A stretch of DNA of 60,544 nucleotides from Hormoscilla sp. GTDB taxonomy: Bacteria > Cyanobacteriota > Cyanobacteriia > Cyanobacteriales > Desertifilaceae. How positions within the stretch are numbered: position 1 is the first letter of the stretch; every line of letters starts with the position of its first letter. The notes below the pieces were generated by a model. That model was given only the letters and a program-made list of their open reading frames with translations, made no database searches and had not been told where the DNA came from. The position numbers and the translations under genes are program-made. Positions 1,448 to 56,410 of the stretch are shown here, one piece after another. The stretch is from contig JBFRWI010000144.1 of NCBI GenBank assembly GCA_051439505.1, positions 1-60,544 on the forward strand, in the 5' to 3' direction.

Positions 1448-1697
1448 TGGTCAATCTCCTCTATAGCTTTTGGTTTTTTTCTCTCGTTACTTTACTGGGG
1501 CAATCAATAGCTAAATGCCCGATCGCCTCCAGTTACCAAGTATTGTTTTCAAAAGTCACGGATATAATTATCTTGCCCTTTTTTCTGTTGTTCTCGATCT
1601 TTCTTAACAAAAATTAAAGAAATATCGGACAAGGGCGATCGCCCCAGGAATGGGCAAAATCTCCAGCACCTGTTTGGTTTCCTACCGTCAACCCAAC

Positions 1698-4040
1698 CTA
1701 CGAGTTTTTCTCCAAGAAAGCCATATTTAAGCCAGCATTACTTAATTGCATGCGGTAGAGTGCTGCCAGTTCCTGACAACCGGACCACACAACCGCTTCC
1801 CCTTGCTTGTGAACCATATTGGCCAACTGCAAAGCCCGATCGCGCTTCATCTCAGGAATATACTTGAGCAAGCAAGCAATCACATAATCAAAGCTATGGA
1901 AATTATCGTTGAGCAGAATCACAAAATAGGAAGAGCGATCGTTATTTGCCGATTCCTCAGAGGGCGGCAAGCATTTAACATAACTAATAGCTTGCGCTAG
2001 ACCGGGATTTAGCTGTACGGTCTGATCGTAATCCGATAGTACACCCTTTAAGTCTCCTAACCTGTAGCGCACCAAACTCCGACCCCCATAGGCTTCCGCT
2101 AGATCGGCATTGAGGGCGATCGCCTGGGTATAATCTTCCAGGGCCCGGGAGTCTTCCCCGATCGCGGCCCGGGCATGAGCCCGTTGCAGATAGCCTTCAG
2201 CCTGGTTAGGATTAAGAAGCAGATTTTCCAAGTAATTTTCGATTGCCAGATCGGCAAAATGTGCTTGCAGCAGGCGGTGAGTAAAGATGTAACCTCCACC
2301 CACCTTTTGTAAAAAACCCCGTTCCGCCCCATAGTCAAGGAAACGGGCGTAGTTCCAGGGAATATCGCCATTGCTATAAAGGACCAGGCGCTGAATAAAA
2401 TGCTTAATGCATGCATCTCCGCCTTTGAGCATTGCCAGAACTAGCCCCACAACTCCTCCAGTAAAGATCGGCAGACTTAAAACATCTGGCAAAAGCACTT
2501 TTCCCATTAGTCCTGCGCCCCCCATCAAGCACAGTAAACCTCCCGTCACTGCAAACACGATCGCATTTTCCAATGACTGCCATATCCCCTCATTCGGAAC
2601 TGTAGTTTTTTCCAGCTTTTCGCTTATCATGCCGCTACATAGTAGCCCACTCACCCCCAGCACTACTCCCCAAAACAGCCCCCCAGTCAGCCCGCCACTG
2701 ACTCCACAAATCAATCCCAAAGGCAGCCATTTTTTCGCATTCCCCCAGGACCATGTTAGCGCTTCCACTGGTTCGATTGGTTCGGTTTTCGTACTCGCTG
2801 CACCTATTATCCCGCCAACTATCCCGATGCTGGGATTCCCTGCTACCAATCCCACTATCCCAGCAATCATCCCCCAAATCAAACCATTAATCCCCTTTAC
2901 CCCGAGATCGTAAGTTCGGTAGGCTTTAGTCTTTTCCTTGCCACTGAATTGCCAAAATGGTATAGTCAACTTATGCTTGGGATCCAGACGCAGCCAACTG
3001 GGCTGCATCCGCTCGATTAATAGCAGAGTTTGAGACTGCTGTTCCATCCGCCAGGCCAACCCACTCAGCCATTGCAGCGATCGGGATTGCCCATATTGAT
3101 GATATCCCGTCTGGCGGCGGGTAAACATCCGTTGAATATAAGCATTAAATAGATGTTTGCGGGGTTGGGAGTCTCGGGTCGATATATCTGTCACCGACAT
3201 GCCCTCGTAAGCGCGGGCGATCGCCTGAAGCATTACCGGTGTCGTTACCAACTCTTGCAGTTTCTTATCTGACTCAAGCAAGGTATTTAATCCGGCAATT
3301 TCTGCCCCAGCCAGATATTCCCGGACTGCTTCTGTTGTCAGGGGTTGGATGGCGATCGCCCCTTGCAGTTTCAGGCGCTGTGGGAGCATTTCATACTCTC
3401 CCAGGCGCGTCGTTACCACCATTTCCGTGCGTCCGTATTGCTGGCTAAATCGATCGATCGCCTGCACGCATAATGGCATGTAAGTGACTTCATCCAACCC
3501 ATCCAGCAACAGCAACAGTTCCTGAGATGTTATCCAACTGCGAGCAATTTGCTCGGGAACCTGATACTGGGCCTGGAGTTCGGCGACCAACCAATCGGCA
3601 AAAGTTTTTTTCTCCCGCCGCCAAAAAGATGATAGATTAAATATAACTGGAATCGGCTGGTGCATGTCTGCAAGGGCCCGATCGAGCAGGTCCCGGGCCA
3701 TGGACAACAAAATAATGGTCTTGCCAGAACCCGGTTCCCCCAGGATCAGGAGACTTCGCCCCTCTCCCAATTGGTCGAACAAGTCAATTGCCTTTGTGCC
3801 TGGGGGCAATATTTTTCGCGGTGCTTCTGGGGTTTCCCACCCCACCCCGATCGGACCTTCTATAGCATCTAGTCGTTCTGCTAGACTCAGGGAGATTGCT
3901 GGAGAGCAGATTTTTTCCAATACCCCTCTGATCCAGTAATTTCTCACCTTATTAAGTAAAGTCTGGCGGTGGCGGTAACTTTCTCTGACGGAAACTGTTT
4001 CAATCCTCTTTTGCAACTGCGGTAATGCCTGGATCTTCAT
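1698..4040 (-). CDS. NACHT NTPase with transmembrane region, TPRs and a C-terminal ClpS domain
   Basis: Walker A GEPGSGKT and Walker B LLLLDGLDEV; Gly-rich TM helices; the IPWNYARFLDY...GGGYIFTHRLL motif; 2-3 TPRs; the last ~76 aa (VILLNDNFHSFDYV...MVHKQGEAVVW...LYRMQLSNAGL) are ClpS-like. Confidence 0.85.
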   Translation of the reverse strand: MKIQALPQLQKRIETVSVRESYRHRQTLLNKVRNYWIRGVLEKICSPAISLSLAERLDAIEGPIGVGWETPEAPRKILPPGTKAIDLFDQLGEGRSLLILGEPGSGKTIILLSMARDLLDRALADMHQPIPVIFNLSSFWRREKKTFADWLVAELQAQYQVPEQIARSWITSQELLLLLDGLDEVTYMPLCVQAIDRFSQQYGRTEMVVTTRLGEYEMLPQRLKLQGAIAIQPLTTEAVREYLAGAEIAGLNTLLESDKKLQELVTTPVMLQAIARAYEGMSVTDISTRDSQPRKHLFNAYIQRMFTRRQTGYHQYGQSRSLQWLSGLAWRMEQQSQTLLLIERMQPSWLRLDPKHKLTIPFWQFSGKEKTKAYRTYDLGVKGINGLIWGMIAGIVGLVAGNPSIGIVGGIIGAASTKTEPIEPVEALTWSWGNAKKWLPLGLICGVSGGLTGGLFWGVVLGVSGLLCSGMISEKLEKTTVPNEGIWQSLENAIVFAVTGGLLCLMGGAGLMGKVLLPDVLSLPIFTGGVVGLVLAMLKGGDACIKHFIQRLVLYSNGDIPWNYARFLDYGAERGFLQKVGGGYIFTHRLLQAHFADLAIENYLENLLLNPNQAEGYLQRAHARAAIGEDSRALEDYTQAIALNADLAEAYGGRSLVRYRLGDLKGVLSDYDQTVQLNPGLAQAISYVKCLPPSEESANNDRSSYFVILLNDNFHSFDYVIACLLKYIPEMKRDRALQLANMVHKQGEAVVWSGCQELAALYRMQLSNAGLNMAFLEKNS

Positions 4041-4181
4041 ATTTATCTTACCAGATGGTATTGTATGGCCCTTTTACTGAGGCAGCAGGGATAATCTTAG
4101 TTTGCCCTATTTGGCGTTCTCATCTATCAATATTCAAGAAAGATTAACTGGCTCTGCATCATTTCTGAGAATATCATCCCT

Positions 4182-5000
4182 ATGGCTCACCAACCCCGCA
4201 AGCGCTTTGCTCAACACTGGCTCCGCAGTGACCGGGTGCTCGATCGCATCATCATGGCGGCAGAATTGGACTCCGGCGATCGGATCCTAGAAATCGGTCC
4301 CGGGACCGGTAGTCTGACTCGCAGATTATTACCCCTAGTGGAGTCGGTAGTGGCGGTAGAAATTGACCGAGATCTATGCCGGAAATTAACTTCTTCGCTG
4401 GGGAAGTCGGAAAACTTTCTCCTGCTGCAAGGGGATATCCTCTCTCTGGATTTGTCGGAGCTGCTGAGTTCTTTTCTGTCGAAACAAAACCTAAATAAAG
4501 TTGTTGCCAATATTCCCTATAATATCACGGGTCCGATTCTGGAAAAATTGCTGGGCACAATTGAACATCCTGCTGCTTTACCCTACAATATCATAGTGCT
4601 GCTCCTGCAAAAGGAAGTTGCCCAACGCCTAGTTGCCCGATCGGGCACTAGAGCCTTCGGGGCCCTGTCAGTGCGAGTGCAGTATAATGCTGAATGCGAG
4701 TTAATCTGTACGGTGCCCGCCTCTGCTTTCTACCCGCCTCCCCAGGTAGAGTCAGCAGTAGTGAGGTTGCGTCCCCGACAGTGTTCTCCAGCAGCAGTTG
4801 AGCCCCGGCACCTGGAAATGCTAGTGAAGCTGGGTTTCGCAGCTAAACGCAAAATGCTGCGCAATAATCTCAAATCAGTGGTAGAGAGCGATCGCCTGAT
4901 TGGGTTACTATCAGAATTAGGAGTGAATCCGCAAGCCCGGGCTGAAGACTTGAGTGTCAGTCAGTGGGTATCCTTAAGCAATCTCTTGGTCGCTTCGTAG
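4182..5000 (+). CDS. rsmA: 16S rRNA m6,2A dimethyltransferase KsgA/RsmA
   Basis: RKRFAQHWL, LEIGPGTG, VVANIPYNIT, QKEVAQRL and FYPPPQVES motifs. Confidence 0.97.
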   Translation: MAHQPRKRFAQHWLRSDRVLDRIIMAAELDSGDRILEIGPGTGSLTRRLLPLVESVVAVEIDRDLCRKLTSSLGKSENFLLLQGDILSLDLSELLSSFLSKQNLNKVVANIPYNITGPILEKLLGTIEHPAALPYNIIVLLLQKEVAQRLVARSGTRAFGALSVRVQYNAECELICTVPASAFYPPPQVESAVVRLRPRQCSPAAVEPRHLEMLVKLGFAAKRKMLRNNLKSVVESDRLIGLLSELGVNPQARAEDLSVSQWVSLSNLLVAS

Positions 5001-7265: not shown

Positions 7266-7352
7266 CAATTTGGAATTTGGAATTTGGAATTTGGAATTTT
7301 GAATTGTTAACCTCACCCAAATTAACAATTAGCCATCAACAATTAACCATTA
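7266..7352. repeat. Heptanucleotide STRR-type tandem repeats
   Basis: (TTTGGAA)n then (AATTAAC)n-like tracts. Similar 7-mer tracts occur at ~6768, 21390, 26940-27040, 31825, 41100, 43868 and 53258. Confidence 0.75.
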
Positions 7353-10247
7353 ACTATAAGCAATGATAATTTCCACAGTTCCCAACTGACCGTCAATGCG
7401 CAGACGCTGACCATCTTGCAACTTTTGGGTAGCATCATGCACGTCCATAACTGCGGGAATGCCATATTCTCGGGCGACGATCGCGCCATGGGACAAGCGC
7501 CCACCCACTTCCGCAACCAAACCCCCCGCACGGGCCAAAAGGGGCGACCAACCAGCATCAGTATAAGGTACAACTAAAATATGATTGCGATTAATATCTG
7601 GCATCTCTTGCCAACTGCGGATGATTTTCACCTCACCCTCTACCAGTCCGGGACTAGCACCAATACCTCGCAACTGTTGACTAGCAGTTGGGCGGTTCCA
7701 GCTTAAATTAAGGATAGCTGCTGGGGGGGCATTGCCGTAAACTACATAGGGTACAGCAGTCAGCTTCTTATCCTGTTGCCATTGACTTCTTCTGGTCCCA
7801 ATCAACTGCGGTAATTGCTCACTCAACTCACCCTTGTCCGTACCAGCAATCAAACTGCGGATTTCCTCAAACTGGAGGAAAAAGATATCTCCAGACTCCT
7901 GCAATATACCCGATCGCAGCCAGACTTGCTCCAAAGCCACAAAACTCCAGCGCAGTTCGGCTAGCAATTGATTATAAACCTCCGTTACTCTACCTTTAAG
8001 ATTAAGGCGGGCCTGGACCACCTGAGCTTTCAAACCTTGAGCTTGACCGGACTCTATAGGTGCCATGAAAATAGTACCTATCTGCTGCACGAACAGTTGG
8101 CGAACGGGTTTGGGGTCTTCCTGCCATCTGGGAGTAGCAATATCAGTTGCTGCTTCGCTGAGATAACCGTAGCGACTGAGAAATTGCTGAAATTGCTCTA
8201 ACACCGTTTGACCGTCTGGGATCTCAGAAAGGTTGCCAAAGATAGTTTCCGGCGTCAAAGTCTCCAACTCCGGTAGCAGATGACGGGCCGCGATCGCAAT
8301 TTCATGGAGCGATCGGGCAGCAGCCACTTCTGGCATCAGACTATAATCTAGATTGGCATCTGCCACCTTCAGCAGAGCTTGCCTGAGAGCGAAACTTAAA
8401 GGAGCGAGAATGCTATAGTAAGTGGCCCGTTTCAGCGCTAAGAGAATGCCATCTATCCGTGCCAGCAGTTCTTCTGGGTCACTGAGAGATTCTAGGCTAG
8501 TTTCCTGTAACTTCTCTATTGTCGGGGCAAACTCCTGAGAGTAATCCCGTTCAAAGTCCTGTTCTAAATTCCATTCCCGCCTCAGCAGGCGAAGCAACCC
8601 TGGCAATTGTCCGATCGTAGACATCAGGGGGGGTTTGCTAAACTTAGCCCCGCGAGTCAGAAATTCCAGACTCTCTGGGGGCAAACCCATGCGCAGAAAT
8701 ATTTCCCCCAGCAAGGAAGCATTGAAGTAAGCGCGGGAATATTGCAGAGTCGCCGTTTCTTCAAAGTCCAAAACAGCAGCAGCTTTACCCAAGACGATCG
8801 TAAAAATTTCTCCCCAGACGCCGCAAGTTAAAGGACGATTAATCGACCAAGTCAGGGGTCGAATGGATCCGGGGATCACTTCCGCAGCAATCTTGCGGGT
8901 CCAGATCGGCACCATGGTACTAATGGGACGAGATTGCAACACCCATAGCTGCTGGCCATCATAACTCCATTCAATATCCTGGGGAATCCCGTGATATTTA
9001 TTTTCCAACTGACGCGCCAATACCGCCACATCATGAATCAAACTTGATGGCACATCTCCATCAGTTTCCTCTACCTGGGTTGTTTCCCCATCCAACACCA
9101 CAACTCGATATTGTTCTGGCGTCTCCTGTCCGGACACTACCCTAGTGGCGTCTCCTGGTAAAGCTTCAATCACCACCTCATCCCCATGTCGCTTCACCGG
9201 ATCCCGACTAAATGCCACCCCTGAAAACACCCCCCCCACTTGGGTTTGAATCAGTACGGCCATGGATGCTTCTGGCAAATTGCGACTGCGACGATACTCT
9301 ACCGCCGCCGGGCGATCGTATGAATTCAAGCAGCGGACGATCGCCTGCTGCAATTCCCGATTGCTAGTAATATTTAAGAAGCTGGCATACTGACCCGCCG
9401 CCGTGGCCTGCTGTGAATCTTCCCCCACAGCAGTCGATCGCACCACCAGGGGATTTTCTGGGGAAGGTTGCAGAAACTCAATTAGCCCTTCGGGATCGTC
9501 ACCGGGTAGCAGCACCCATCCCCCAGGTACAGCATAGCCCCAGCGCTTCAGTAAAGATAAAGTTGCGGCTTTTTCACCCACAACCCTGGCATCCAGTCGA
9601 TCGGACAAGGAAACTGCCGCCCGATCGCCTCTAAAAAAACGAAACATAGTTCTAGTTTCCCCCTGTTTTTGTGGCACTGGCAAGTCCAAGTCATCGGCAA
9701 TTTGTTGGTAGATCCAGGCTAACAGCAAACTCAGGGCGATCGCTGCCACGCCGACTACCTTTTGTTGCGGGCGCAGCAATATGGTAATCACGGGAAACAG
9801 CACCAATACCACCAAGCGTCCCAGCCTCCGTTCCCGGACAATTGTAAAGCCGATCGTTCCGATCAGAAACACCAAACCTGCTACCTCCGGGTCGTGGGCG
9901 ATCGCCCCCCAGACCACATTAGTAGTGCCAGCACCTTTAGCCATCCCATAGCGGCCCACAACCAGGGCCATCAGGGCCAGCAACTCCCAAGCTGCGGCAT
10001 CAGGAAAGAAGAAACGGGCCAGTAGGACAGCGAAAATCCCTTTAGCCGCCTCAGATAGGACCGCCAGAATGCCTGCGAAGCTGCCGCCGTGGTAAAAAGC
10101 CGCCGAAACCGATACATTACCAGTACCCAGTTGTTTCAGGCTGCGTCCCTTCAGGGCCAATATAATCCAGTCAATTAGAGGTAGCCCTCCCAACAAAGGA
10201 CAGATTGTCAATATGACCAGAGCGCCCCAAACTTGCATTGATATCAT
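7350..10247 (-). CDS. PlsY-like membrane domain fused to PEP-synthase/PPDK-type ATP-grasp and phospho-His swivel domains
   Basis: The N-terminal TM domain has LKQLGTGNVSVSAAF and SEAAKG. VRSTAVGEDS..AAGQY and PQDIEW..LQSRPI mark the ATP-grasp domain. The C-terminus has GGRLSHGAIVAREYGIPAV. Confidence 0.85.
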   Translation of the reverse strand: MISMQVWGALVILTICPLLGGLPLIDWIILALKGRSLKQLGTGNVSVSAAFYHGGSFAGILAVLSEAAKGIFAVLLARFFFPDAAAWELLALMALVVGRYGMAKGAGTTNVVWGAIAHDPEVAGLVFLIGTIGFTIVRERRLGRLVVLVLFPVITILLRPQQKVVGVAAIALSLLLAWIYQQIADDLDLPVPQKQGETRTMFRFFRGDRAAVSLSDRLDARVVGEKAATLSLLKRWGYAVPGGWVLLPGDDPEGLIEFLQPSPENPLVVRSTAVGEDSQQATAAGQYASFLNITSNRELQQAIVRCLNSYDRPAAVEYRRSRNLPEASMAVLIQTQVGGVFSGVAFSRDPVKRHGDEVVIEALPGDATRVVSGQETPEQYRVVVLDGETTQVEETDGDVPSSLIHDVAVLARQLENKYHGIPQDIEWSYDGQQLWVLQSRPISTMVPIWTRKIAAEVIPGSIRPLTWSINRPLTCGVWGEIFTIVLGKAAAVLDFEETATLQYSRAYFNASLLGEIFLRMGLPPESLEFLTRGAKFSKPPLMSTIGQLPGLLRLLRREWNLEQDFERDYSQEFAPTIEKLQETSLESLSDPEELLARIDGILLALKRATYYSILAPLSFALRQALLKVADANLDYSLMPEVAAARSLHEIAIAARHLLPELETLTPETIFGNLSEIPDGQTVLEQFQQFLSRYGYLSEAATDIATPRWQEDPKPVRQLFVQQIGTIFMAPIESGQAQGLKAQVVQARLNLKGRVTEVYNQLLAELRWSFVALEQVWLRSGILQESGDIFFLQFEEIRSLIAGTDKGELSEQLPQLIGTRRSQWQQDKKLTAVPYVVYGNAPPAAILNLSWNRPTASQQLRGIGASPGLVEGEVKIIRSWQEMPDINRNHILVVPYTDAGWSPLLARAGGLVAEVGGRLSHGAIVAREYGIPAVMDVHDATQKLQDGQRLRIDGQLGTVEIIIAYS

Positions 10248-22896: not shown

Positions 22897-24561
22897 TCAA
22901 GAAATACCCACTAATTTCTGCGTTTCGCCAACTAACTGCTTAAAAGCCTGATGTTCTCGAATTGTCGCTAAATCTGGGTCTGTTTTAGCAGCTTCTCGAT
23001 AGGCCGAGTTGAGCGCGATCGCCCGCTGCAAATTGAGCAATGCCGATTTCATATTACCCATCGCCCCATAGCAGTAAGCCCGGTTGTAGTAAGCATTAGC
23101 ATGGTCCGGTTTTATTTGCACCGATCGCTCCAGACTAGCGATCGCCTCCTGATAGCGACCCAATCTTGCCAGAGTATAACCCCGATTATCCCATGCTTCG
23201 TATTTATTCGATTGAATACTCAAAGCCTTTTCATAAGAATTAATCGCCTGATTGTACTCCTGCAATTTTTCCAGCACATTGCCTCTGTTATTCCAAGTAT
23301 CTGCTTTTCCCGGCTGGATTTCCAGAGACTTATCATAGGAAGCCAAAGCCTCTTGATATCGTTGCAACTCGTATAACGCATAGCCCCGCCCATACCAACC
23401 TTCCGCATCATCCGGCTTAATTGAGAGCAACCTGTTGTAGGAATTCACCGCCTCTTCATAATTCCCCAACTTTGTCAAGGCATTGCCTCTATTATACCAT
23501 ATTAACGGTTCATTTGCACCTAATTCTATCGTCTTGTCGTAGGCCGCGATCGCCTGTTTATACTGCTGCAATTTTCCCAGCACGTTTCCCATATTTAACC
23601 ATATTAACGGGTCCGACTCCTTAAACGATATCGCCCGCTCATATGATGCGATCGCCTCTTTATAGCGCTGCAACTTCGCCAATGCCCCCGCGCGATTGTT
23701 CCATGCTTCCGGGAAATCTGCCTTTATACTCAGAGACTTATCATAGGATGCGATCGCCTCCTGATAGCGTTGCAACTTCGCCAATGCCCCCCCGCGATTA
23801 TTCCATGCTTCCGGCAAATCCGGCTGCAAGGCGATCGCCCGATCGTAGAGCCCGATCGCCTCTTCATAGCCCTTTTCCATAAACATAGCATCGCCTTGCT
23901 TAACATAATCTGCCGCCGTCGGCACCTGCTTTTCCCCTGCAGCTGGCCCTTGAGTTAATCTGGGGAGGAACTCAGCCAGCTTTTTGTAAATCTGGTCTCG
24001 CGCCGCTTGCGTTTCCGCCGCAATGCTTCTCAACTCTGCCGCCGCATTATTCTTCGCGGAAACAATTTCTTTCTCCGTGCGATCGGCCTGTTCTCCTAGC
24101 CTTTCTAATACCGTTTCCGCCTCAGAAATTGTCCTTTTGATTTGATTTATACTGTCTGCCTGATAACTTTCCAGTTCTTGCTTGTGGATCTCCGTTTGGG
24201 TAAACAACTTCTCCCGTTGCCACCACAGCAGCAGCATCCCCACCGCTATAAATAAACCCAAGAACGCCAGCAGCAAAGCGTTCAGGGAGACGACTGCATT
24301 CAGCAGCGAATCATTTATTTGCGACTGGATCCGAACCTTCAGGCCCGGACTTTTCTCTACAGTCTCCTCAACTATTTTTTCAATTTCCTGTCGTTCCAGT
24401 ACCCCCCCGCGATCCTCTGCTGACTGGGTCTCCCCTAAGATGCGAATAGGACTTTCGGGGGATAGGGGTGTTTCTTGAGCCCACAGTACGGGCGTCACTG
24501 CCACCCCACCTGCCAACACGAGAGTCGAAAGTGTACGTGCCATCTGGTGCTTGACGTTCAT
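22897..24561 (-). CDS. Membrane-anchored coiled-coil + multi-TPR protein
   Basis: Signal peptide, one TM helix, a coiled coil and ~9 TPRs (AWNNRG..L..L.RY.EAIASY). Confidence 0.85.
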   Translation of the reverse strand: MNVKHQMARTLSTLVLAGGVAVTPVLWAQETPLSPESPIRILGETQSAEDRGGVLERQEIEKIVEETVEKSPGLKVRIQSQINDSLLNAVVSLNALLLAFLGLFIAVGMLLLWWQREKLFTQTEIHKQELESYQADSINQIKRTISEAETVLERLGEQADRTEKEIVSAKNNAAAELRSIAAETQAARDQIYKKLAEFLPRLTQGPAAGEKQVPTAADYVKQGDAMFMEKGYEEAIGLYDRAIALQPDLPEAWNNRGGALAKLQRYQEAIASYDKSLSIKADFPEAWNNRAGALAKLQRYKEAIASYERAISFKESDPLIWLNMGNVLGKLQQYKQAIAAYDKTIELGANEPLIWYNRGNALTKLGNYEEAVNSYNRLLSIKPDDAEGWYGRGYALYELQRYQEALASYDKSLEIQPGKADTWNNRGNVLEKLQEYNQAINSYEKALSIQSNKYEAWDNRGYTLARLGRYQEAIASLERSVQIKPDHANAYYNRAYCYGAMGNMKSALLNLQRAIALNSAYREAAKTDPDLATIREHQAFKQLVGETQKLVGIS

Positions 24562-24746
24562 GAAGTTCTGCCCACCTTGTGCCGATCTTGCCTTGCCTTT
24601 TACCAGATTATCCCATAGCGGTTAATTTTTTGCACCCGGGGGTGATGACCATTTGGGACAATATGCCAACTTAGGAATCCCTGGAGAGCGAGCAAGTGGA
24701 GCAATCTACTGACTAGCCTTGTCCCACCCTCGATCGCCAACTGAGA

Positions 24747-26939
24747 TCATACTACCTGATAGATAAAGCTCAGAGTTGCCCAGGCATTTACATCCAGGGC
24801 CCAAACATCCGTCGATAGCCCCAGATCCGAGGCCGATAGCTGACTCGCCTCGTGCAAATCCTCTAGCAGCGCCTTTACCACCTCTAAAGGATTTGACAGC
24901 ATCGCCGATGAGCCATCTCCTGTCGGAGCCATCGATTTTGCCATTGCTGCGGAGGTCTGAGTGAAAGGAGCAATACTGAAAATCAGTTTAGTTTCCACCA
25001 GTCCCGTCGGACCGGAAACTGCCCATTCCACCGAGGTAGCTTGAGGGATAACCAGAGTTTCCCCTGGGGCAATGACTTGCTGTTTGAAGATGGATTTTTC
25101 TGTCGAACCCCTATTTTCTTGGGAGACTGCTGGAGTTGCTGCAACTGGGGATAGAGTTACCCTCGCAGGTTTGCAGATGTTAATTGTACCCCCATTGCTA
25201 TCCAAGCCCAACAGCAGAAAATAAACTGGGCGAGACTCTTTATTGTGCAGTCCGTAGCGGATCCTGCTCCCCACGGGCACTTGCAAAATTTCTGTTCCCA
25301 CCCGTGAGGGTAAGTTCAATTCCTGGGGAATTTCGGCTCGCGGTTGGAGTCTCATTACTAACCGATCTTGAGCAGTAACCATTTCTAGGGCAGCTTTTAC
25401 CCTCAAGCTAGAAGAGTCCGGGTTTTCCGTTAACCGCAGCAACTTGGCTGCTTGCAGAGCTTTCAATTGCGGTGCGAGCCGCTGCACGGCTGTTTTCACC
25501 GCTTCCCCTTTAGAACCCCCGGTATTGTCAATGGGAATGTTTGCTGGCCAGAACAGGCCGTAACTCTTCTGAACCTCTGAAATACTATCACTCTTGTCTA
25601 TTTTACCAAACAGGCAATCTGCTGAGACTGGAGATTTTTCGATCGCCACTGTCTTGACATTATCAACAGCTGAAAAAGCACTGGTGGCATCTACCCGTTC
25701 AATGCGTTCCAACCCAGGACTCAGTCCCACGGTCAATGACACCTGACGGGGTATAACTCTGATTCCTTCTCGAACCAGTTGCCCGACTGCTGTAGACCCT
25801 GTTTTCAATTTTGCCTTAGCTATCAGACCCGATCGGGAGGTAATTTGCAATTGAGTCTCTGAGCTTGCCACCTGAAGCACGGAATTGACGCCATAATTTT
25901 CCAGTACCTGTGGCGGTAGTCCCCCCAACCACAACTGTACGGTTTGGCCATCTGCTTCTACTGCTCTGACTGCGCCATCAGCCCCCCATACAGTATTCTG
26001 AGTTAGGTATTCACTTTTTTCCTCGCTCAACTTTGGCAGCTCTTCGTTACTGGTTAGTTGTTCTACTACTCCTGATGCCTGAGAGAAACTGACTTTTATG
26101 CTAGTCGCTGCGGTCGCTAACCATAGCTGCTGGGTGATAGCGTAAGTAAATAGACCACTGCTAAATCCATTCCATTGCGCCTCAAATGCTTTCTCTCCCG
26201 TCTCCTGGGCCGTCCCTATGGGGTTTGCTGCCGCCAGCACCATTCCTGGTAGTTGACTAATGTTCTGGATCTTGGCTATTTCTGTCGATCTATTCTGGGA
26301 GAGTTTTTCTGGCACGGCTAATGCTCGATCGCTCAGAACTCCTGCGACTGCATCATTACGAGCCCGCAGCCACAAGGAACCCACTAGCTGAGCGTCCAAA
26401 CCCTTCAGGTAGCTCGTATCTAGGATAGCGATCGCCTTCTGCGTCGGCAGCATATGCAGCAGCAGATGCAGCCTTGAGATCGATAAGTCATTCACTTGCC
26501 TATTTTCCGGTGATGGATCTCCCCCATCCACTGGCACCAGGGTGTTTTGCAATGCTTCTCCCTGGCGAACCTGCCTGCCATAGCCGCTAAAGTGGAATAC
26601 TACCACATCATCAGGACCTGCCTGTTCTATCAGATGCTCGATGAATGCCGATTCTATTTGCTCTCTTGTAGCCTGCTTATCCGTGAGGGTGATAATATCA
26701 TCTGTGCTGAAGCCAAACCGATGGATCAGCAGCGATCGTTGTAGTTCTACATCCGTGACGCCACCTGTTAGTGCTGCTGTGGGATACTGGTTAATACCCA
26801 CTAGCAGAGCTAACTTTCGGCTGGTGGGTTGGGCTAGGGCTTGGTAATAGCGCCTCCCCAATAGTGACAGTCCAGCCTCACTAATTCCCAGGGCTGCCAT
26901 TGTCCAGCCCAGCCGTTGCAAAAAATCCCGCCGTTTCAT
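24747..26939 (-). CDS. Tat-exported caspase-like protein (pseudo-orthocaspase) with C-terminal DUF4384-like domain
   Basis: MKRRDFLQ Tat motif; KLALLVGINQY; FHFSGYG and ILDTSY, in which the catalytic His/Cys are replaced by Tyr/Ser. Confidence 0.85.
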   Translation of the reverse strand: MKRRDFLQRLGWTMAALGISEAGLSLLGRRYYQALAQPTSRKLALLVGINQYPTAALTGGVTDVELQRSLLIHRFGFSTDDIITLTDKQATREQIESAFIEHLIEQAGPDDVVVFHFSGYGRQVRQGEALQNTLVPVDGGDPSPENRQVNDLSISRLHLLLHMLPTQKAIAILDTSYLKGLDAQLVGSLWLRARNDAVAGVLSDRALAVPEKLSQNRSTEIAKIQNISQLPGMVLAAANPIGTAQETGEKAFEAQWNGFSSGLFTYAITQQLWLATAATSIKVSFSQASGVVEQLTSNEELPKLSEEKSEYLTQNTVWGADGAVRAVEADGQTVQLWLGGLPPQVLENYGVNSVLQVASSETQLQITSRSGLIAKAKLKTGSTAVGQLVREGIRVIPRQVSLTVGLSPGLERIERVDATSAFSAVDNVKTVAIEKSPVSADCLFGKIDKSDSISEVQKSYGLFWPANIPIDNTGGSKGEAVKTAVQRLAPQLKALQAAKLLRLTENPDSSSLRVKAALEMVTAQDRLVMRLQPRAEIPQELNLPSRVGTEILQVPVGSRIRYGLHNKESRPVYFLLLGLDSNGGTINICKPARVTLSPVAATPAVSQENRGSTEKSIFKQQVIAPGETLVIPQATSVEWAVSGPTGLVETKLIFSIAPFTQTSAAMAKSMAPTGDGSSAMLSNPLEVVKALLEDLHEASQLSASDLGLSTDVWALDVNAWATLSFIYQVV

Positions 26940-36112: not shown

Positions 36113-37102
36113 ATGCCACCACCGCGAGTACCACAGCTATCTAAACAGGGCATTAAGATTGCCAAAGAAGCTTTGACACGCGAGGGATGGTCTTACGAGA
36201 AATTGGCAGAGAGGATAGCCGAAAAGCATGATTTGACCTTTACGGATCAGGTGGTTAGCCGCTTTCTCAATGGCAAACGAATTGACCGTCATAATTTTCG
36301 CTGGCTTTGCGATGAACTCGGCTTAGAGGTGAGTGAAGTAGCAGAGACCCTGGAGGAACTGGCACCAAATCCGCCGAAACCATCCCATCCCTTCGACTTT
36401 ATCCGAGGTCCGGTCAGCAAGCCAGAGGATTTTTTTGGTCGCACGGAACTCTTACGACAACTGTTCGAGGAACTCGCCAAAGGCAGCAATATTTCATTGC
36501 TTGGACCGGCACGGGTGGGCAAGTCTTCGATCTTGAAGATGATTTGCCATTGGGGACCGGAACGTCTGGGGCTATCTCCCGAACAGTTTATCAACCTGGA
36601 CATGCAATTGATTCGGGATGAAAATGAATTTTTCGAGGCCCTATGCGATGAATTAAAGATTGAGACCTGTCGCAGCCGCAAGTTAGACCGGGCCTTGCGG
36701 GGCCAGCGGTACATCCTCTGTCTGGACGAAATTGACAAGCTGACTCGGGAAGAACATTTCACCGGGGACGAACGGAGAGAGTTACGGGCACTAGCCTATG
36801 GTGCGGACAAGCCCTTCAGCTTAGTCATTGCCAGCCAAAAACCTTTGCAAGACTTGTTCCCCGACTCGTCTGACAGGACATCGCCCCTGGTGGGTATCTG
36901 TCTCACCATGGACGTGCAGCCATTCTCAGGGCGGGAAACGCGGGATTTTCTCAGCCGCCAGTTGCAAGGCACTGGCATCAACTTTACTGAAGATCAGATT
37001 AAGGCATTGCTAAAGGAAACTGAAGGTTATCCAGCACGCCTGCAACGGGCTGCTGCTGACTTGTACCGTCGCCTATCCGGGGGAAACGAGGGGAAATGCT
37101 AA
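36113..37102 (+). CDS. XRE/Cro-like HTH fused to a STAND-type AAA ATPase
   Basis: WSYEKLAERI...VVSRFLNGKRID helix-turn-helix; FFGRTELL, Walker A GPARVGKS, Walker B LCLDEID and GYPARLQ. Confidence 0.85.
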   Translation: MPPPRVPQLSKQGIKIAKEALTREGWSYEKLAERIAEKHDLTFTDQVVSRFLNGKRIDRHNFRWLCDELGLEVSEVAETLEELAPNPPKPSHPFDFIRGPVSKPEDFFGRTELLRQLFEELAKGSNISLLGPARVGKSSILKMICHWGPERLGLSPEQFINLDMQLIRDENEFFEALCDELKIETCRSRKLDRALRGQRYILCLDEIDKLTREEHFTGDERRELRALAYGADKPFSLVIASQKPLQDLFPDSSDRTSPLVGICLTMDVQPFSGRETRDFLSRQLQGTGINFTEDQIKALLKETEGYPARLQRAAADLYRRLSGGNEGKC

Positions 37103-37144
37103 CCTCAAAGTGAAAGCCTGACGCCAAAATCGCAAATCGTACCG

Positions 37145-38770
37145 ATGCCCACATTTCCCACCTATCGCGGCGAACTCCCCCCATGTCTGAATCCCCTCAA
37201 CCTGCGCCACTACTTATTGCTCTTCTACTGGGTTTACTTTCGTTCCACGGCGCTCAAATGCTATCTCTACCAAGCCGATGGAGAACTTTACACGGCATCG
37301 GGCTTGAATATCTTGAGCACGTTACGGCTGCCAGCATACCGCAATCTCTATCTGATGGTGCCCGGAGTGAGTCTGTTGCTCTCATCACTAATAAGCTTGC
37401 CTATTGTGCTAGCAACTAGCTGGATTCAAAATACACCAGTTAGCTTCTTGGGGGTTGGTAGAGGCGTCGCAATTGGCGTCGCAATTGGCGTCGCCATCGG
37501 CCTCGCCTTCGGCCTCGCCATCGGCGTCCGTAAGAGCGTAGCATTCGGCGTCGCGTGGGGCGCAGCCATCGGCGTAGCCTGGGGCGTAGCCTGGGGTGTA
37601 GCCATCGGCGTAGCCTGGGGCGTAGCCATCGGCGTCGCTTGGGGCGTAGCCATCGGCATCGCATTCGGCGTCGCCTGGGGCGTAGCATTTGGCGTAGCCT
37701 GGGGCGTCGCAGGGGACCTCGCCATCGGCGTCACCATCGGCGTGGCATTGGGCGTGGCATTCGGCATTGCCTTCGGCGTCACATTGGGCATCCCATGGGG
37801 CCTCGGGACTTTGCGCATGCCCTTTTACCCATTTCAGTTACCCTTAGCATTACGCAGCAGGTTTCGGGGAAGACATCCCTTAGAGTGGGATCAATTGGTC
37901 ATATTACCCCTGCCCGGAACGCAGCAGTTGCTAACTAGACGGTTACAGCAGGATGAGATAGGGGGATTGGGTCTTGTAGGTGATGTAGCTCGCAACCCAT
38001 TTCAGCGCCCTTACGCACAACAGGCACTACAAGCATATCTACACCGTCACTCAGCCCCGCTACAGTTTATCTATACTCTGCTTGCTTGCCCCGCTCTGAA
38101 TGAGTACGTTTTCACGCCATTTAGAAAGGAATATTGGGAGATAGTACCAGCAACTAGAAAGCTGCTACTGGGGGAACTCAATGGACAGTGGGTGGACTGC
38201 AAATTACCAGGTGAGGGTTTAATCTGGTGGCTGAGTTGGAGAGGGCGCGACTTGCGTCAGACGCCTCTGACTCACTTTGCAGGTATGCTCTACCAGTTAC
38301 TAGACGAAGAGACAGTCGTAATGGAAGATTTCGACCTATCTCGCTACCGTAAAACCTCCGATCGCTTGACCGACTACCCAGGGGGCGTAGAAATTGCCAA
38401 TTCTTTTGAAGCAATGGCAACCTTCTTATCTTACAACCATTTGTCCGCCCTACCCGCAGCAGTTGAGGTGGTCGAGAAGTTACAGTTACATCAAATATCT
38501 CTAGAAACAGCCATCCGCCCGGCAGTCATAACTGCTCTCACCCGTCTGGTCCAAATCGGTGCAGAAATAGCCACCTACCAAGATGGGACAACCCGGGCGA
38601 ACAAACAAGCAGCTCTCCTCCGCGCCACTGACGCCCTCGATAAGTTAGATGAATACATTATTGCTGAAGTAGTCGCCCCCGAACAGACAATTCTGCGGCG
38701 CATCATCCGCCAGTGGCGTCCGTTAGTGAGCGAAGCAGGTGGCGAGGGTGCATCTGGGATTTGCAAATAG
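37145..38770 (+). CDS. Membrane protein with GVA(W/I/F) tetrapeptide repeats, probably a C-terminally truncated STAND ATPase
   Basis: LNPLNLRHYLLLFYWVYFR start, ~25 GVAx repeats, then a helical region. The ORF ends at a (GACAAGGCT)n repeat with no P-loop. A possible C-terminal relic lies at 38854-38937. Confidence 0.65.
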   Translation: MPTFPTYRGELPPCLNPLNLRHYLLLFYWVYFRSTALKCYLYQADGELYTASGLNILSTLRLPAYRNLYLMVPGVSLLLSSLISLPIVLATSWIQNTPVSFLGVGRGVAIGVAIGVAIGLAFGLAIGVRKSVAFGVAWGAAIGVAWGVAWGVAIGVAWGVAIGVAWGVAIGIAFGVAWGVAFGVAWGVAGDLAIGVTIGVALGVAFGIAFGVTLGIPWGLGTLRMPFYPFQLPLALRSRFRGRHPLEWDQLVILPLPGTQQLLTRRLQQDEIGGLGLVGDVARNPFQRPYAQQALQAYLHRHSAPLQFIYTLLACPALNEYVFTPFRKEYWEIVPATRKLLLGELNGQWVDCKLPGEGLIWWLSWRGRDLRQTPLTHFAGMLYQLLDEETVVMEDFDLSRYRKTSDRLTDYPGGVEIANSFEAMATFLSYNHLSALPAAVEVVEKLQLHQISLETAIRPAVITALTRLVQIGAEIATYQDGTTRANKQAALLRATDALDKLDEYIIAEVVAPEQTILRRIIRQWRPLVSEAGGEGASGICK

Positions 38771-49310: not shown

Positions 49311-50273
49311 TTAATAAGGACCAAGAAATCGTTCTCCATTAAAGTGAATCATGTGAGTCGGTTCCTCTGCGACCCATACTTCGGTTTCCCAAGAGATTTG
49401 ATGGATATATTTTGCCATGTCACTGCGGGTCAGGAAAGCAGTCACGAATACAAGGCCAGCAGTTGAATTTTTAAATACTGCTTCCAGTTCATTTCGGCGC
49501 TTTGCATCTACAGGACCATGACTTGTTACAGCTTCAATTAAAACCAACCAATTACGTTTTAGATAATGAACTGCAACATCCGGCATTTTCCCGTAAGTAT
49601 TAAAGTTAACTCCTAGATTTTCCAGGTACTCTTGATTACCTAGTTGCCACTTCTTATCGGCATCACCTATTAAGATTACTTTTCCGCCCGGAGTGAACAG
49701 CTCACAAAAATCTTCAATAATATGCTTGAGCAGTTGGTTTTGCCCGCCAGGAGACAAAGATATTGTTTCCCCTGAAGCCAGGGTGACGGGAATTCTTTTC
49801 ATTTCCCGATCGCGCGCATACCTTTTTTTCAGTGTCTCTATCGATGACAAATATGTTTTTAACTTTGGCATCCATGCTTCTGTGCCATAAATACGCAGCA
49901 AATTCAGGACACTTTCGTCAACACTATAAACTGTGTTCGGACTATTAGTTGGTCTTGTCGGCTTATCTGGGTTGATCTTAATAATACCAGCATCTAAAAA
50001 CTGGTGTACGGTGTGGCGACGAATTGTTTCGCGAGTGTTAGGTGCATATTCTCTGCCATAATTTTGTTTGATAAATTGCATAATAGGCGTAATTCCCATG
50101 AGCGGATTACTTGCTTGAGACCAAAAACTATCTGACTTGAGAGCGAGGAGAGCAAGTAATGTCAGAGCCGATCTATCGTTTTGCTGTTGCTCCGGCAAAC
50201 CAAGCGCTTTCAGGATATATTTTGCCTCTTCTATTTTCTGTACTGTTTTGTCAGATATCTGCTGCCCAGACAT
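49311..50273 (-). CDS. Type II restriction endonuclease, BsuBI/PstI family
   Basis: YAPNTRETIRR, PTNSP, LSPGGQN, KMPDV, LIEAVTSHGPVD and ISWETEVW motifs. Confidence 0.92.
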   Translation of the reverse strand: MSGQQISDKTVQKIEEAKYILKALGLPEQQQNDRSALTLLALLALKSDSFWSQASNPLMGITPIMQFIKQNYGREYAPNTRETIRRHTVHQFLDAGIIKINPDKPTRPTNSPNTVYSVDESVLNLLRIYGTEAWMPKLKTYLSSIETLKKRYARDREMKRIPVTLASGETISLSPGGQNQLLKHIIEDFCELFTPGGKVILIGDADKKWQLGNQEYLENLGVNFNTYGKMPDVAVHYLKRNWLVLIEAVTSHGPVDAKRRNELEAVFKNSTAGLVFVTAFLTRSDMAKYIHQISWETEVWVAEEPTHMIHFNGERFLGPY

Positions 50274-50279
50274 AAAACT

Positions 50280-51332
50280 CTAATACTCCTTCATGAAGTC
50301 AAAAGATAGCTGTATTGGTTCTTGGGATGCTGTGGGTGTTGGCTTACCCTCTAAATATTGTTTAACAGAATCAGCGATCGCTTTTGCCAGCAAAGGCGGC
50401 ACGGCATTGCCAATTTGATAGCACTGACTGTCAAAATTACCACAAAACTCAAACCAGTCGGGAAAACTTTGCAGGCGTGCTCCCTCCCTGACAGTTAACC
50501 GTCGCCTCCTGCCATCGGGCAAGCGAATGCGGAGCATATCTCCCGTAGCGGCGGCGAGGTTGCGACAGGTGACGGTTCTGGCGGGAGCATGCAAGTGCAA
50601 GTCTCTGGGGGTGACGCATTTGGAAGCACGCTCGTATTTTTGGATATATTTATCCATGCTGGGGGTGAGAAATTTGGCATCAGGGGGTACAGTAAAGGCT
50701 AGATCTCCGAGGGCTTCCCCGGCGGTGTAGGTTGAGTGAAAATGGGTAGGGGGTGGCCATCGCCAACCGCCTTTGTGGGCAATGCAAAACAGTCGCTCTC
50801 GTCGCTGGGGTACACCGTAATGAGCGGCCTTGAGTATTTCCCATTCTACATGATAACCGATATTTTTTAACGCCGCGACAATTTCGGCAAAATATGTTTT
50901 ATTTTTATACAGCATTCCCCGGACATTTTCAAAGATGGCGATCGGGGGTTGATAGCGTTCTACGGCACTGATAAAAATGGGGAAACCGTCGCGGCTGTCT
51001 TTGAGTCCCCGCTGGTGGCCGCTAACGCTAAAAGGTTGGCAAGGGGGTCCGCCGATAATGGCGGCGGCTTCTGTTTCTAAATCCGAGTTTGGTGATAGAG
51101 TGACTTGGTAGCAACTTCCGTGTAAGTTGTGACGGTATGTGGTGCTGGCATCCGGCAGCATTTCATAACCGACAGTTCTCAACCCAGCGGCTTCAAAGCC
51201 AAGTGCCATGCCGCCGCATCCAGCAAATAAATCTATAGTTAAAGGTGCCAATTTGGGCGGTGGGTTGGGGGGCAGTTCGGCGGCTAATAATTCCTGATAA
51301 GTTAGTTTAGTGACTGAGATAGTGATTGGCAT
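50280..51332 (-). CDS. DNA (cytosine-5)-methyltransferase
   Basis: DLFAGCGG, GGPPCQPFS, FENV, PQRRER, RLQSFP and QIGNAVPP motifs. Confidence 0.95.
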   Translation of the reverse strand: MPITISVTKLTYQELLAAELPPNPPPKLAPLTIDLFAGCGGMALGFEAAGLRTVGYEMLPDASTTYRHNLHGSCYQVTLSPNSDLETEAAAIIGGPPCQPFSVSGHQRGLKDSRDGFPIFISAVERYQPPIAIFENVRGMLYKNKTYFAEIVAALKNIGYHVEWEILKAAHYGVPQRRERLFCIAHKGGWRWPPPTHFHSTYTAGEALGDLAFTVPPDAKFLTPSMDKYIQKYERASKCVTPRDLHLHAPARTVTCRNLAAATGDMLRIRLPDGRRRRLTVREGARLQSFPDWFEFCGNFDSQCYQIGNAVPPLLAKAIADSVKQYLEGKPTPTASQEPIQLSFDFMKEY

Positions 51333-53653: not shown

Positions 53654-56134
53654 CTAATCAGCCACTTTAGATAGCAGAACTGGTTCCTTCTTCTCGGGAG
53701 CCAGTACCTTCACGGCCCCGCTTTCATCCACATCGACGACAGCGGTATCTCCATCTTGAATGCGACCGGAAAGAATTTCTTCAGCCAAGCTATCTTCCAA
53801 CAAGCGCATAATTGCTCGCCGCAGAGGTCGGGCCCCGTAGGCCGGGTTGTAGCCCTCTTCCACCAGCCGTTCTTTGAACTTCTCGGTCACTTCCAAGGTA
53901 ATGCCCTGTTCTGTGAGGCGTCCGAAGACTTCCTTGAGCATGATTACTGCTATTTCCTTCACTTCTTCCTTGGACAGCTGCCGGAAGACGATAATCTCGT
54001 CCAGACGGTTGAGGAACTCTGGCCGGAAATACTGCTTGAGTTCTTCGTTCACCAGAGCACGAATGCGGTTGTACTGAGCATCGGCTGTATTTTCCTCAAA
54101 TTCAAAGCCTAACCCGCCACCACCTTTCTCAATTACCTTCGACCCGATGTTGGAGGTCATAATCAGCAAGGTATTTTTGAAGTCCACCGTGCGACCCTTA
54201 GCATCCGTCAGCCGGCCATCCTCCAATATTTGCAGCAGCATATTGAACACATCTGGGTGTGCTTTTTCGATTTCATCGAACAGCACCACCGTGTAGGGGC
54301 GACGGCGCACCGCTTCCGTCATCTGACCGCCCTCGTTATAACCCACGTATCCTGGGGGAGAACCGATCAACTTGGATACCGTGTGACGTTCCATGTACTC
54401 CGACATGTCTAGGCGAATCATCGCCTCTTCCGAACCGAAGAAATAGGTCGCTAGGGCCTTAGTGAGTTCCGTCTTACCTACACCGGTAGGGCCAGAGAAG
54501 ATAAAGCTGGCGATCGGGCGATTGGGGTTTTTCAATCCCACCCGGGCGCGACGAATAGCGCGAGAGACCGCCTTGACGGCATCGTCCTGACCGATCAGGC
54601 GCTGGTGGAGAGTATCCTCCATGTGCAGCAGCTTTTCGGATTCCGACTCCGTCAGCTTATTCACCGGTACTCCCGTCCAAGATGCGACAATATGGGCGAT
54701 ATCCTCCTCCGTGACGTTCGGACTCTCTGATTCGGCGTTATTCTCCTGTTCCGCCTTTTTCGCCGACGCGATCGCCTTAATCTCGCTTTTTATTTCCATT
54801 TCCCGATCTCGCAATTCTCCGGCCCTGTCAAAATCCTGCGATCGGACAGCATCGTCCTTTTGCTTGAGCACCTCACGCAGTTCCTTGTCAAGTTCCTTTG
54901 CTGCTGGAGGCAATTGAGAATTTATCAGTCGGACCCGGGAACCTGCTTCATCGATCAAATCTATTGCCTTATCCGGCAAATAGCGGTCTGAGATATAGCG
55001 GTCTGACAGTTTTGCCGCCGCTTCCAGGGCCGCATCTAATATTTTCAGCTTGTGATGTTCCTCGTAGCGTTCCCGCAGACCGTGCAAAATTTCAATCGTT
55101 TCTTCCACAGAAGGTTCGCCCACCATCACCGGTTGGAACCGACGTTCTAGAGCTGCATCTCGTTCAATATGCTTGCGGTACTCGTCCAGGGTAGTAGCGC
55201 CGATACATTGCAGTTCCCCTCGGGCCAAAGCCGGTTTGAGAATATTCGCCGCATCGATCGCCCCTTCGGCGGCCCCGGCACCGATCAGGGTATGGACTTC
55301 ATCGATCACCAGGATGATATTGCCTGCCGAGCGAATTTCCTCCATAATTTTTTTCAGCCGTTCTTCAAACTCGCCCCGATACTTCGTCCCTGCCACTAGC
55401 AAGCCCACATCGAGAGTCACAACCCGCTTTTCTTCCAAGATATCGGGGATATCATCTTGGGCAATGCGTTGGGCCAAACCTTCCGCGATCGCCGTTTTCC
55501 CCACCCCTGGTTCTCCAATCAGCACCGGGTTATTTTTCGTCCGGCGTCCCAGGATTTGGATCACCCGTTCGATTTCCTGCTGGCGACCTACAACCGGGTC
55601 CAGTTTACCCTCACCTGCCATTTGAGTCAGGTTAGAGCCGAACTCATCTAGAGTTGGCGTTTTCGTGCGGCCACCGCTGCCACCCGCCGTCACCTCTGCA
55701 GTTTCCCCCAGCATGCGAATCACTTGAGTCCGCACCTTAGACAGGTCAACTCCTAGGTTTTCCAGCACCCTGGCCGCCACCCCTTCGCCTTCCCGGATCA
55801 GACCCAGAAGCAAATGTTCCGTGCCAATGTAGTTATGACCCAGTTGGCGGGCTTCTTCCAGGGATAATTCCAGCACCCGCTTCGCTCTAGGGGTAAAAGG
55901 AATTTCCACAGCGACAAAACCCGAGCCCCTACCAATGATTTTTTCTACCTCTATCCTGGCGTCCTTCAGGTTAACGCCCATAGATTTTAGTACCTTGGCA
56001 GCGACGCCGGTTCCTTCGCCGATCAGACCCAAGAGGATCTGCTCTGTACCTACAAAATTGTGACCCAGGCGGCGTGCTTCCTCCTGGGCCAGCATGATTA
56101 CCTTAATAGCTTTTTCTGTGAAGCGTTCAAACAT
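53654..56134 (-). CDS. clpC: ATP-dependent Clp protease ATPase subunit ClpC
   Basis: [26 protein letters not shown] start (ATG 56134); two AAA modules GEPGVGKT and [11 protein letters not shown] coiled coil. Confidence 0.98.
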
Positions 56135-56410
56135 GGCGTCTTTCCATCGGCTATTTTTTTCTGAGTCTGTCTGGCTAATTTGCTTTCTTTGGGTCCGGGC
56201 AGTCCGTAGGCTGCTTCCCATTACGATGATATTAGCATAGGTTAATTAAAGGATTTTTGTAGGGCAACACAGAAGTTGATGGGGGGATTCCCGCTACAAT
56301 CTACTATAATACGCCGATCTTGCACCGAAGCGATCGCCGGACCACACCGGTGTTGGTGGACGCCCGTTCCTATGGGATTCGCTACTGTGACTTGGATCAC
56401 TTTCCCCAGC

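Follow-up and report, generated by a model that had tools for sequence, protein, structure and literature searches.

A ClpS1 domain fused to a membrane-anchored NACHT protein in Hormoscilla and other Cyanobacteriales: a possible built-in N-degron sensor

Among bacterial NACHT proteins, the classes that Kibby et al. (bioRxiv 10.1101/2022.07.19.500537) call 'TM regions', 'Hybrids' and 'Other C-terminal sensor domains' come closest to the protein studied here; the last of these holds GUN4, described as a sensor on cyanobacterial NACHTs. A bacterial NACHT tied to protein quality control has been reported in bNACHT25, which works with DnaJ and is a precedent for indirect sensing through a chaperone (PMC12169576). 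In nucleotide-binding leucine-rich-repeat receptors (NLRs) of plants and animals, integrated decoys carry a host domain or surface within the receptor, as in plant RRS1-WRKY and mouse NLRP1B (PMC13037943), and a ClpS-like fold has been described in a predicted conflict system, as L12/ClpS-fold insertions in the vWA proteins of beta-propeller ternary systems (PMC7159879). We analyzed a 60,544-nt contig of Hormoscilla sp. (JBFRWI010000144.1, assembly GCA_051439505.1; hereafter the window), in which a single open reading frame (ORF) of 780 aa on the reverse strand, at 1698-4040, joins a NACHT switch with a membrane insert, tetratricopeptide repeats (TPRs) and a ClpS1 domain.

The fused protein differs from each of these systems. 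Judged by its sequence motifs and predicted fold it is a NACHT (STAND) protein, with a Walker A, the Walker B signature and a winged helix; in contrast to the NACHTs of Kibby et al., its small domain is ClpS1 and there is no N-terminal effector (their clade 14 is also given as an exception to carrying effectors). The anti-phage bNACHT and Avs proteins have an effector and a defence context, neither of which was found here. bNACHT25 depends on a free chaperone of the host and has DNA degradation as its readout, whereas the fused protein has a built-in host domain and no enzyme. NLRP1B senses protease activity and is itself degraded, whereas the ligand of the fused protein would be a new N-terminus on a different protein, and an obligate paired helper is not supported for it. 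The domain described in PMC7159879 is of the ribosomal L12 type in Bacteroidetes vWA proteins, while here ClpS1 sits on a STAND protein. With the ClpS1 N-recognin (cyanobacterial; Arabidopsis, 7d34; E. coli, 1mbu/3o2b) the fused domain shares fold, ClpS1 descent and pocket residues such as N34 and H66; it differs in having no free N-terminal extension, in eroded E79/E82 (E. coli numbering, used throughout for ClpS residues) and Leu80, and in its tether to a membrane switch. We found no published description of ClpS on a STAND protein, although supplementary Table S1 of Kibby et al. might hold one: 'Clp' has 0 matches in the main text of that paper, and the fusion is absent from 7 supplementary files of PMC13581612. 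A search of the literature for ClpS mutant data likewise returned none.

All parts of the gene lie on the reverse strand. An N-terminal helical motif and the NACHT nucleotide-binding domain occupy aa 18-235 (3336-3989); Pfam NACHT matched aa 96-243 (E 8e-11), and the best fold matches of the AlphaFold2 model of this part were NOD2, NAIP and NLRC4. The absence of an N-terminal effector, noted in a preliminary description made from the letters of the window, was borne out, since the NACHT module starts after only 6-27 aa in 20/20 fused proteins measured. Walker A (aa 101-108; 3717-3740) is intact, lysine included, and its pattern was found in 14/16 fused proteins, the two lacking it being one N-truncated copy and the protein of genome G080. 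Walker B (aa 177-185; 3486-3512) carries the NACHT D-G-h-D-E signature, as in 15/16 fused proteins; the signature D[GAS]hDE, as defined by Kibby et al., spans aa 180-184. HD1 and the first half of the winged helix probably cover aa 236-350 (2991-3335), with boundaries drawn from the alignment and a low-confidence model. A glycine-rich membrane insert with four hydrophobic stretches follows at aa 351-545 (2406-2990), its hydropathy windows beginning at 381-395, 443-455, 492-495 and 515-523, and the order of motifs would place it within the winged helix, as in the type 'TM inserted into the NACHT module' of Kibby et al. The second half of the winged helix (aa 546-600; 2241-2405) was assigned by alignment, and most relatives end soon after it. 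It includes GGGYIFTH, which we take to be the winged-helix motif; the C-terminal winged-helix motif lies at aa 581-592, after the membrane insert, in a low-confidence part of the model. About 2.5 TPRs occupy aa 601-685 (1986-2240), supported by the model and by Pfam matches at aa 614-662, every one slightly under its own cut-off. A variable linker (aa 686-702; 1935-1985), with a mean identity of 25%, leads to the ClpS1-derived domain (aa 703-777; 1710-1934).

The assignment of this last domain rests on Pfam, NCBIfam, structure comparison and alignment. Pfam ClpS matched aa 702-768 with an E of 1e-13, above the cut-off, and the best NCBIfam match was of ClpS1 type (PRK13019.1-3, E 3e-28, below its whole-protein cut-off). 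The domain shares 57% identity with the free ClpS1 of the same genome and 34% with its ClpS2, both free genes being retained. The AlphaFold2 model of the ClpS part superposed on peptide-bound Arabidopsis ClpS1 (7d34) with a TM of 0.94 and an rmsd of 0.7-0.9. Thus the preliminary description was right to see a complete ClpS domain, and its extent, put at about nt 1701-1928, is refined to a core at nt 1710-1934. The predicted TPR-ClpS model had a pTM of 0.79. When TPR and ClpS were modelled as two chains the score was 0.58 against 0.00 for the best control, which lends weak support to packing of the one on the other, since a mark at or below 0.60 was reached by 18/157 solved complexes and by both of 2 passing mismatches; the two-chain runs had 100% contact agreement and a partner pLDDT of 89, with no interface given.

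The fusion is genuine, and it defines a protein family of filamentous cyanobacteria. Contigs of sequencing run X1, possibly the source sample, span the TPR-ClpS junction without a difference, and one contig of X5, from another study, covers 1631-4182, where the sole difference listed within the frame is a deletion of 3 nt. A single ORF of 785-833 aa is present in 13 other genomes, and no stop separates the TPRs from ClpS. The C-terminal 220 aa matched 17/401 genomes of the order, from 9 families, 14 of which hold one ORF of 780-833 aa, so the fusion is no singleton; in a phylum-wide sample the same query matched 2/401 genomes, both of this order. Across the 9 families the fused proteins are 43-58% identical, and metagenomes hold full-length relatives at 89-92%. 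Named records of the fusion come from Hormoscilla, Oscillatoria sp. PCC 10802, O. princeps, Hyella patelloides, Prochloraceae and Xenococcaceae, together with a partial Moorea protein; two of these carriers (Oscillatoria sp. PCC 10802 and Hyella patelloides LEGE 07179) have culture-collection strain numbers. Databases label the fused proteins piecemeal, as 'ClpS' or 'NACHT'. Within the genus the gene is intact in 1/5 genomes and broken in the other four: an ISL3 element splits it within the ClpS part in G004, G001 holds one frameshifted and one N-truncated copy, and G002 and G003 hold fragments only. G065 also carries a frameshifted copy. The ESM Atlas returned only generic NACHT-TPR clusters, under 0.9, and in a profile search of 1.84 billion proteins the matches were swamped by TPR proteins, leaving nothing usable. 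A promoter and terminator scan stayed at chance level, and RNA run X20 gave two small pieces at a depth of ~3 and no evidence of expression.

In a tree of 70 columns, whose bootstrap had not fully settled, the fused ClpS domains formed one clade (100/99) beside ClpS1 and apart from ClpS2, and the NACHT cores of 20 fused proteins formed one clade in a quick tree (SH 99). We compared these with 44 non-fused NACHT relatives picked by hand, 19 from genome loci and 25 from a sequence-search match list. At least 80 aa lie ahead of NACHT in 34/44 of them, and the N-terminal domains, scanned in 18 proteins, include kinase, TIR, CHAT, cyclase, AAA_35 and EAD8. The fused clade mirrors this arrangement, with 6-27 aa upstream and a tail of ~200 aa. 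Ten of the 44 have fewer than 55 aa upstream, and 9 of those are also without a long tail. The TPRs, which the preliminary description took for a usual part of the module, are not so in this sample, as 38/44 relatives end 12-29 aa past the winged-helix motif. The fusion thus has one origin, best explained by a single capture of host clpS1 by a membrane-anchored NACHT switch in an ancestor of several Cyanobacteriales families. Two relatives were noted for their own sake: a NACHT-membrane protein with a C-terminal signal peptidase (S26) domain (L184:1391-3997), and a kinase-NACHT-membrane paralogue, 51% identical, in the genome with the genus's only intact fused gene (L170:3518-6268; G000:C68), which was not found in the other four genomes of the genus.

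We compared residues of 24 fused domains (17 loci, three broken copies included, plus 7 proteins) with those of 29 free ClpS1; P0003, identical to another row, and the split copy of G004 were left out. In the Hormoscilla protein the pocket residues N711, D712, N713, H715, F717 and H744 correspond to E. coli N34, D35, D36, T38, M40 and H66, and the docking-face residues E757, A760 and Y762 to E79, E82 and K84, the last a position that cyanobacteria fill with Tyr. The LLNDNF pocket and the retained VH had thus been read correctly at the outset. N34, D35 and F40 were retained in 24/24 fused domains and H66 in 22/24. D36 is one of three contacts to the alpha-amino group, along with N34 and H66 (PMC12493166), and Asn at this position occurs also in peptide-bound Arabidopsis ClpS1 (7d34), so the D-to-N change need not mean altered function, and we rejected a loss-of-function reading of it. 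His at position 38 is common to the fused protein and Plasmodium ClpS. A free ClpS1 with Asp at both N34 and H66 was also seen (L087; G316).

The docking face gave a different picture. E79 and E82 contact ClpA (PMC12493166), and the two acids occur together in 1/24 fused domains against 29/29 free ClpS1. E79 is kept in 16/24 and E82 in 5/24; the Hormoscilla protein keeps E79 and Y84 and has Ala for E82, and Leu stands at position 80 in 24/24. On the tree E79 and E82 each show a minimum of 5 changes (to K, Q, H, S and P, and to A, Q and N, respectively), while D35 and F40 show zero changes; four rows in these counts were clipped at the C-terminal end. ClpA moreover has to pull the N-terminal extension of ClpS, which must be free (PMC9663308), and the ClpS N-terminus here is tied to the TPRs through a 17-aa linker, with ~700 aa ahead of it. 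Delivery of bound targets to ClpC, one of the functions initially proposed, is therefore unlikely. The clpC gene said to lie in the window is there, at 53654-56221, but ~50 kb from the fused gene, and among the ORFs listed for 19 related loci none has the ClpC N-terminus; we accordingly rejected a linkage. With the pocket kept and the docking face worn, the domain may sense freshly cut proteins and not destroy them. N-terminal F, Y and W are ligands of free cyanobacterial ClpS1 (PMC7966870), and this specificity together with the conserved pocket suggests that the fused domain binds N-degrons.

Selection on the ClpS part was estimated from pairwise dN/dS. Five whole-domain pairs, not all independent, gave 0.11-0.31, and five pairs of free ClpS1 gave 0.01-0.06; two pairs involving the stub broken by the insertion sequence gave 0.49-0.62 on ~17 codons. 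The ClpS part is thus maintained by purifying selection, yet relaxed, and is not hypervariable.

We favour the reading that the fused protein is an integrated N-degron sensor on a membrane-anchored NACHT switch, at a probability of roughly 45%. The initial idea of a sensor or decoy fits in outline, given a pocket under purifying selection, a domain in the sensor position, and a ClpS1 also present, next to GUN4, in the swappable tail of a second STAND-like protein (P0294, below). The membrane insert is probably crossed an even number of times, in which case NACHT, TPR and ClpS would all face the cytoplasm. ClpS would pack on the TPRs and keep the switch off, until its pocket binds a protein with an exposed aromatic N-terminus, produced by a phage or host protease or accumulating when Clp is blocked. 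Binding would release the TPR-ClpS cap, and NACHT would swap its nucleotide and oligomerise. Since there is no enzyme domain, the output would come either from clustering of the glycine-rich membrane segments, leading to growth arrest or death, or from recruitment of another protein; this is the weakest step, and both activation and output are modelled on general knowledge of NLRs.

Several observations weigh against this reading. H66 is replaced by Asp in 2/24 fused domains, and position 36 holds Asp in only 9/24 (against Asn in 13, Ser in 1 and a deletion in 1), changing as often on the tree (5 times) as E79 and E82. Other exposed positions drift as well, Q64 and R90 with 10 changes each, so part of the docking-face contrast may be general surface relaxation. 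Tyr at the K84-equivalent position (Y84) is kept in 24/24, and Arabidopsis and Plasmodium ClpS keep E82 and lack E79, like some fused domains; docking may hence persist in the 5/24 that keep E82. The counted sequences are kin, not independent. The ClpS part is not fast-evolving either, with a mean identity of 58% against 60% for the nucleotide-binding domain. Kibby et al. regard the membrane segments as probable sensors and mention effectors at the C-terminus. A common origin for both captures of ClpS was not rejected (p-AU 0.58), and 3/14 carriers are without a close NACHT-membrane paralogue (E 1e-20), so an obligate helper is not supported. The neighbourhoods are housekeeping, stable in family f19, and form no defence island; PADLOC run on 32 proteins gave short P-loop or incidental matches in 4 and nothing for the fused protein (P0001). 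The anti-phage role first suggested thus found no direct support.

The same architecture can be turned around, with the membrane insert as sensor and the TPR-ClpS part as an output that replaces the N-terminal effector and, upon oligomerisation, captures N-degron proteins or anchors ClpC to the membrane. This is the strongest competitor, though we consider it doubtful. It would explain why sister proteins have an effector, NACHT and membrane segments but no tail, while the fused clade has a tail and no N-terminal domain; Kibby et al. describe C-terminal effectors as well as 'hybrid' domains that tether, one relative ends in a signal peptidase domain, and E79 (16/24) and Y84 (24/24) are often or always kept. 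Against a tether, ClpC would have no free N-terminal extension to pull (PMC9663308) and E82 is lost in 19/24. The 9 relatives that are short upstream and without a long tail show that effector loss needs no replacement, and the ClpS of P0294 sits among sensor-type domains. A further reading makes ClpS a decoy that mimics host ClpS1 for phage proteins which bind or hijack it; the switch would then be triggered by a protein surface and not by an N-degron. Some jumbo phages encode ClpS or ClpP (PMC7824862), two families of PHROG and two records of uncultured jumbo phages match the domain, and plant and animal NLRs offer examples of integrated decoys (PMC13037943). A decoy should however keep the host surface, and P77, E82, H85, R90 and Q64, exposed and invariant in free ClpS1, are mostly lost in the fused domains; moreover, neither phage record gives a host, and no cyanophage match to the domain was found. 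We regard a decoy as quite unlikely.

A non-immune regulator of proteostasis or membrane stress, acting with neighbouring peptidases, is also unlikely, if suggested by context. In genus g1 and in G061 the fused gene has an AIM24x3-M48 cluster next to it, and in G061 it lies 6 bp before M48; a papain-like peptidase is 2 bp away in G022, clpS2 and a CAAX protease are near in two f23 genomes, short bare NACHT genes stand beside AIM24 genes in other families, and there is no defence context. The source genome, however, has lost the AIM24x3-M48 cluster and kept an intact fused gene, 11/14 other M48 loci are without a NACHT, and the gene is patchy (17/401) and broken in 4/5 genomes of the genus and in G065. 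The broken copies, and a dN/dS well above that of free ClpS1, would suit a neutral passenger fusion or a decaying gene, but retention across 9 families, a whole-domain dN/dS well below 1 and invariant pocket residues make this very improbable.

ClpS1 was found on a second scaffold. In a profile search of longer proteins, which gave 95 matches among 8000 candidates scored, P0294 (1355 aa) combined AAA_35, WD40, ClpS1, GUN4 and Macro, the last by source name. Its ClpS1 has an intact pocket and has lost E79, and falls outside the fused NACHT-ClpS clade. P0294 represents one cluster of five near-identical sequences (P0355-P0358), and an orthologue from a metagenome matches it at 78% identity along aa 1-878 but carries another tail beyond that point, which makes ClpS in P0294 part of an exchangeable cassette. 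The tail matched 0/401 genomes, with no positive control among them. The orthologue's gene comes after a kinase-AAA_35 gene; L231:5008-7956 is the locus noted for these proteins. Five candidates were set aside: the metallo-beta-lactamase-ClpS 'fusions' P0312, P0314, P0315 and P0318, and P0311, are probably artefacts, being single-member clusters, most with frameshift-like junctions. That cyanobacteria built ClpS1 more than once into NLR-like receptors, for immune sensing of protease activity or blocked Clp through new N-termini, with signalling by their own membrane segments and no enzymatic effector, is a possibility we hold tentatively, with the odds leaning against it.

Most bacterial NLR sensor domains lack a known ligand, and here the sensor position holds a domain of known ligand chemistry, so that a short synthetic peptide and single mutations in the pocket could serve to test activation. 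If correct, the favoured reading would link the N-degron pathway to bacterial immunity, give a prokaryotic case of the host-domain integration seen in plant NLRs, and open a route to learning how the large cyanobacterial NACHT-membrane family signals.

The neighbours in the 19 loci (67 chosen ORFs scanned) are mostly housekeeping genes and transposases; in family f19 the fused gene lies between chlB and the pgl/PRC genes. No second NACHT gene occurs in these loci, and with 3/14 carriers lacking a paralogue we rejected an obligate helper NLR. In the window, rsmA/ksgA (4182-5000, forward strand) is the divergent neighbour, as at 4/4 same-position loci of the genus; we treat it as context and not as part of the system. 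A short dispersed repeat of 33 bp, partly palindromic, lies over the stop codon (1669-1703) and has 15 further matches in the genome. Peptidases adjoin the fused gene in other genomes (L048:7026-8144, L049:10491-11300, L051:12799-13884, L054:6530-7622): papain-like with a 2-bp gap, M48 with a 6-bp gap, and a CAAX protease with clpS2 ~1-2 kb away. A different, short NACHT adjoins AIM24 genes in G031, G032, G066, G128, G145 and G176. Such short bare NACHT genes stand beside rsmA and/or AIM24 (L203:4889-6337, L205, L207, L215, L216 and L226; also L218, L224 and L225) in several families, with 451-482 aa in the two read and a reduced membrane insert; the ClpS-fused gene of the genus occupies the same rsmA-AIM24 slot in the opposite orientation.

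Other genes of the window were noted in passing. A pentapeptide-repeat protein with a methyltransferase-like C-terminus and 42% GC is encoded at 260-1447, where relatives have AIM24x3-M48. A glycerol-3-phosphate acyltransferase is fused to a PEP-synthase-like (PPDK) protein at 7350-10247, as also in L207, and at 22897-26939 a TPR protein adjoins a caspase-DUF4384 protein. At 36113-38770 an nSTAND1-like ATPase precedes an unassigned ORF of 541 aa, and a restriction endonuclease of the BsuBI/PstI family adjoins a C5 cytosine methyltransferase at 49311-51332.

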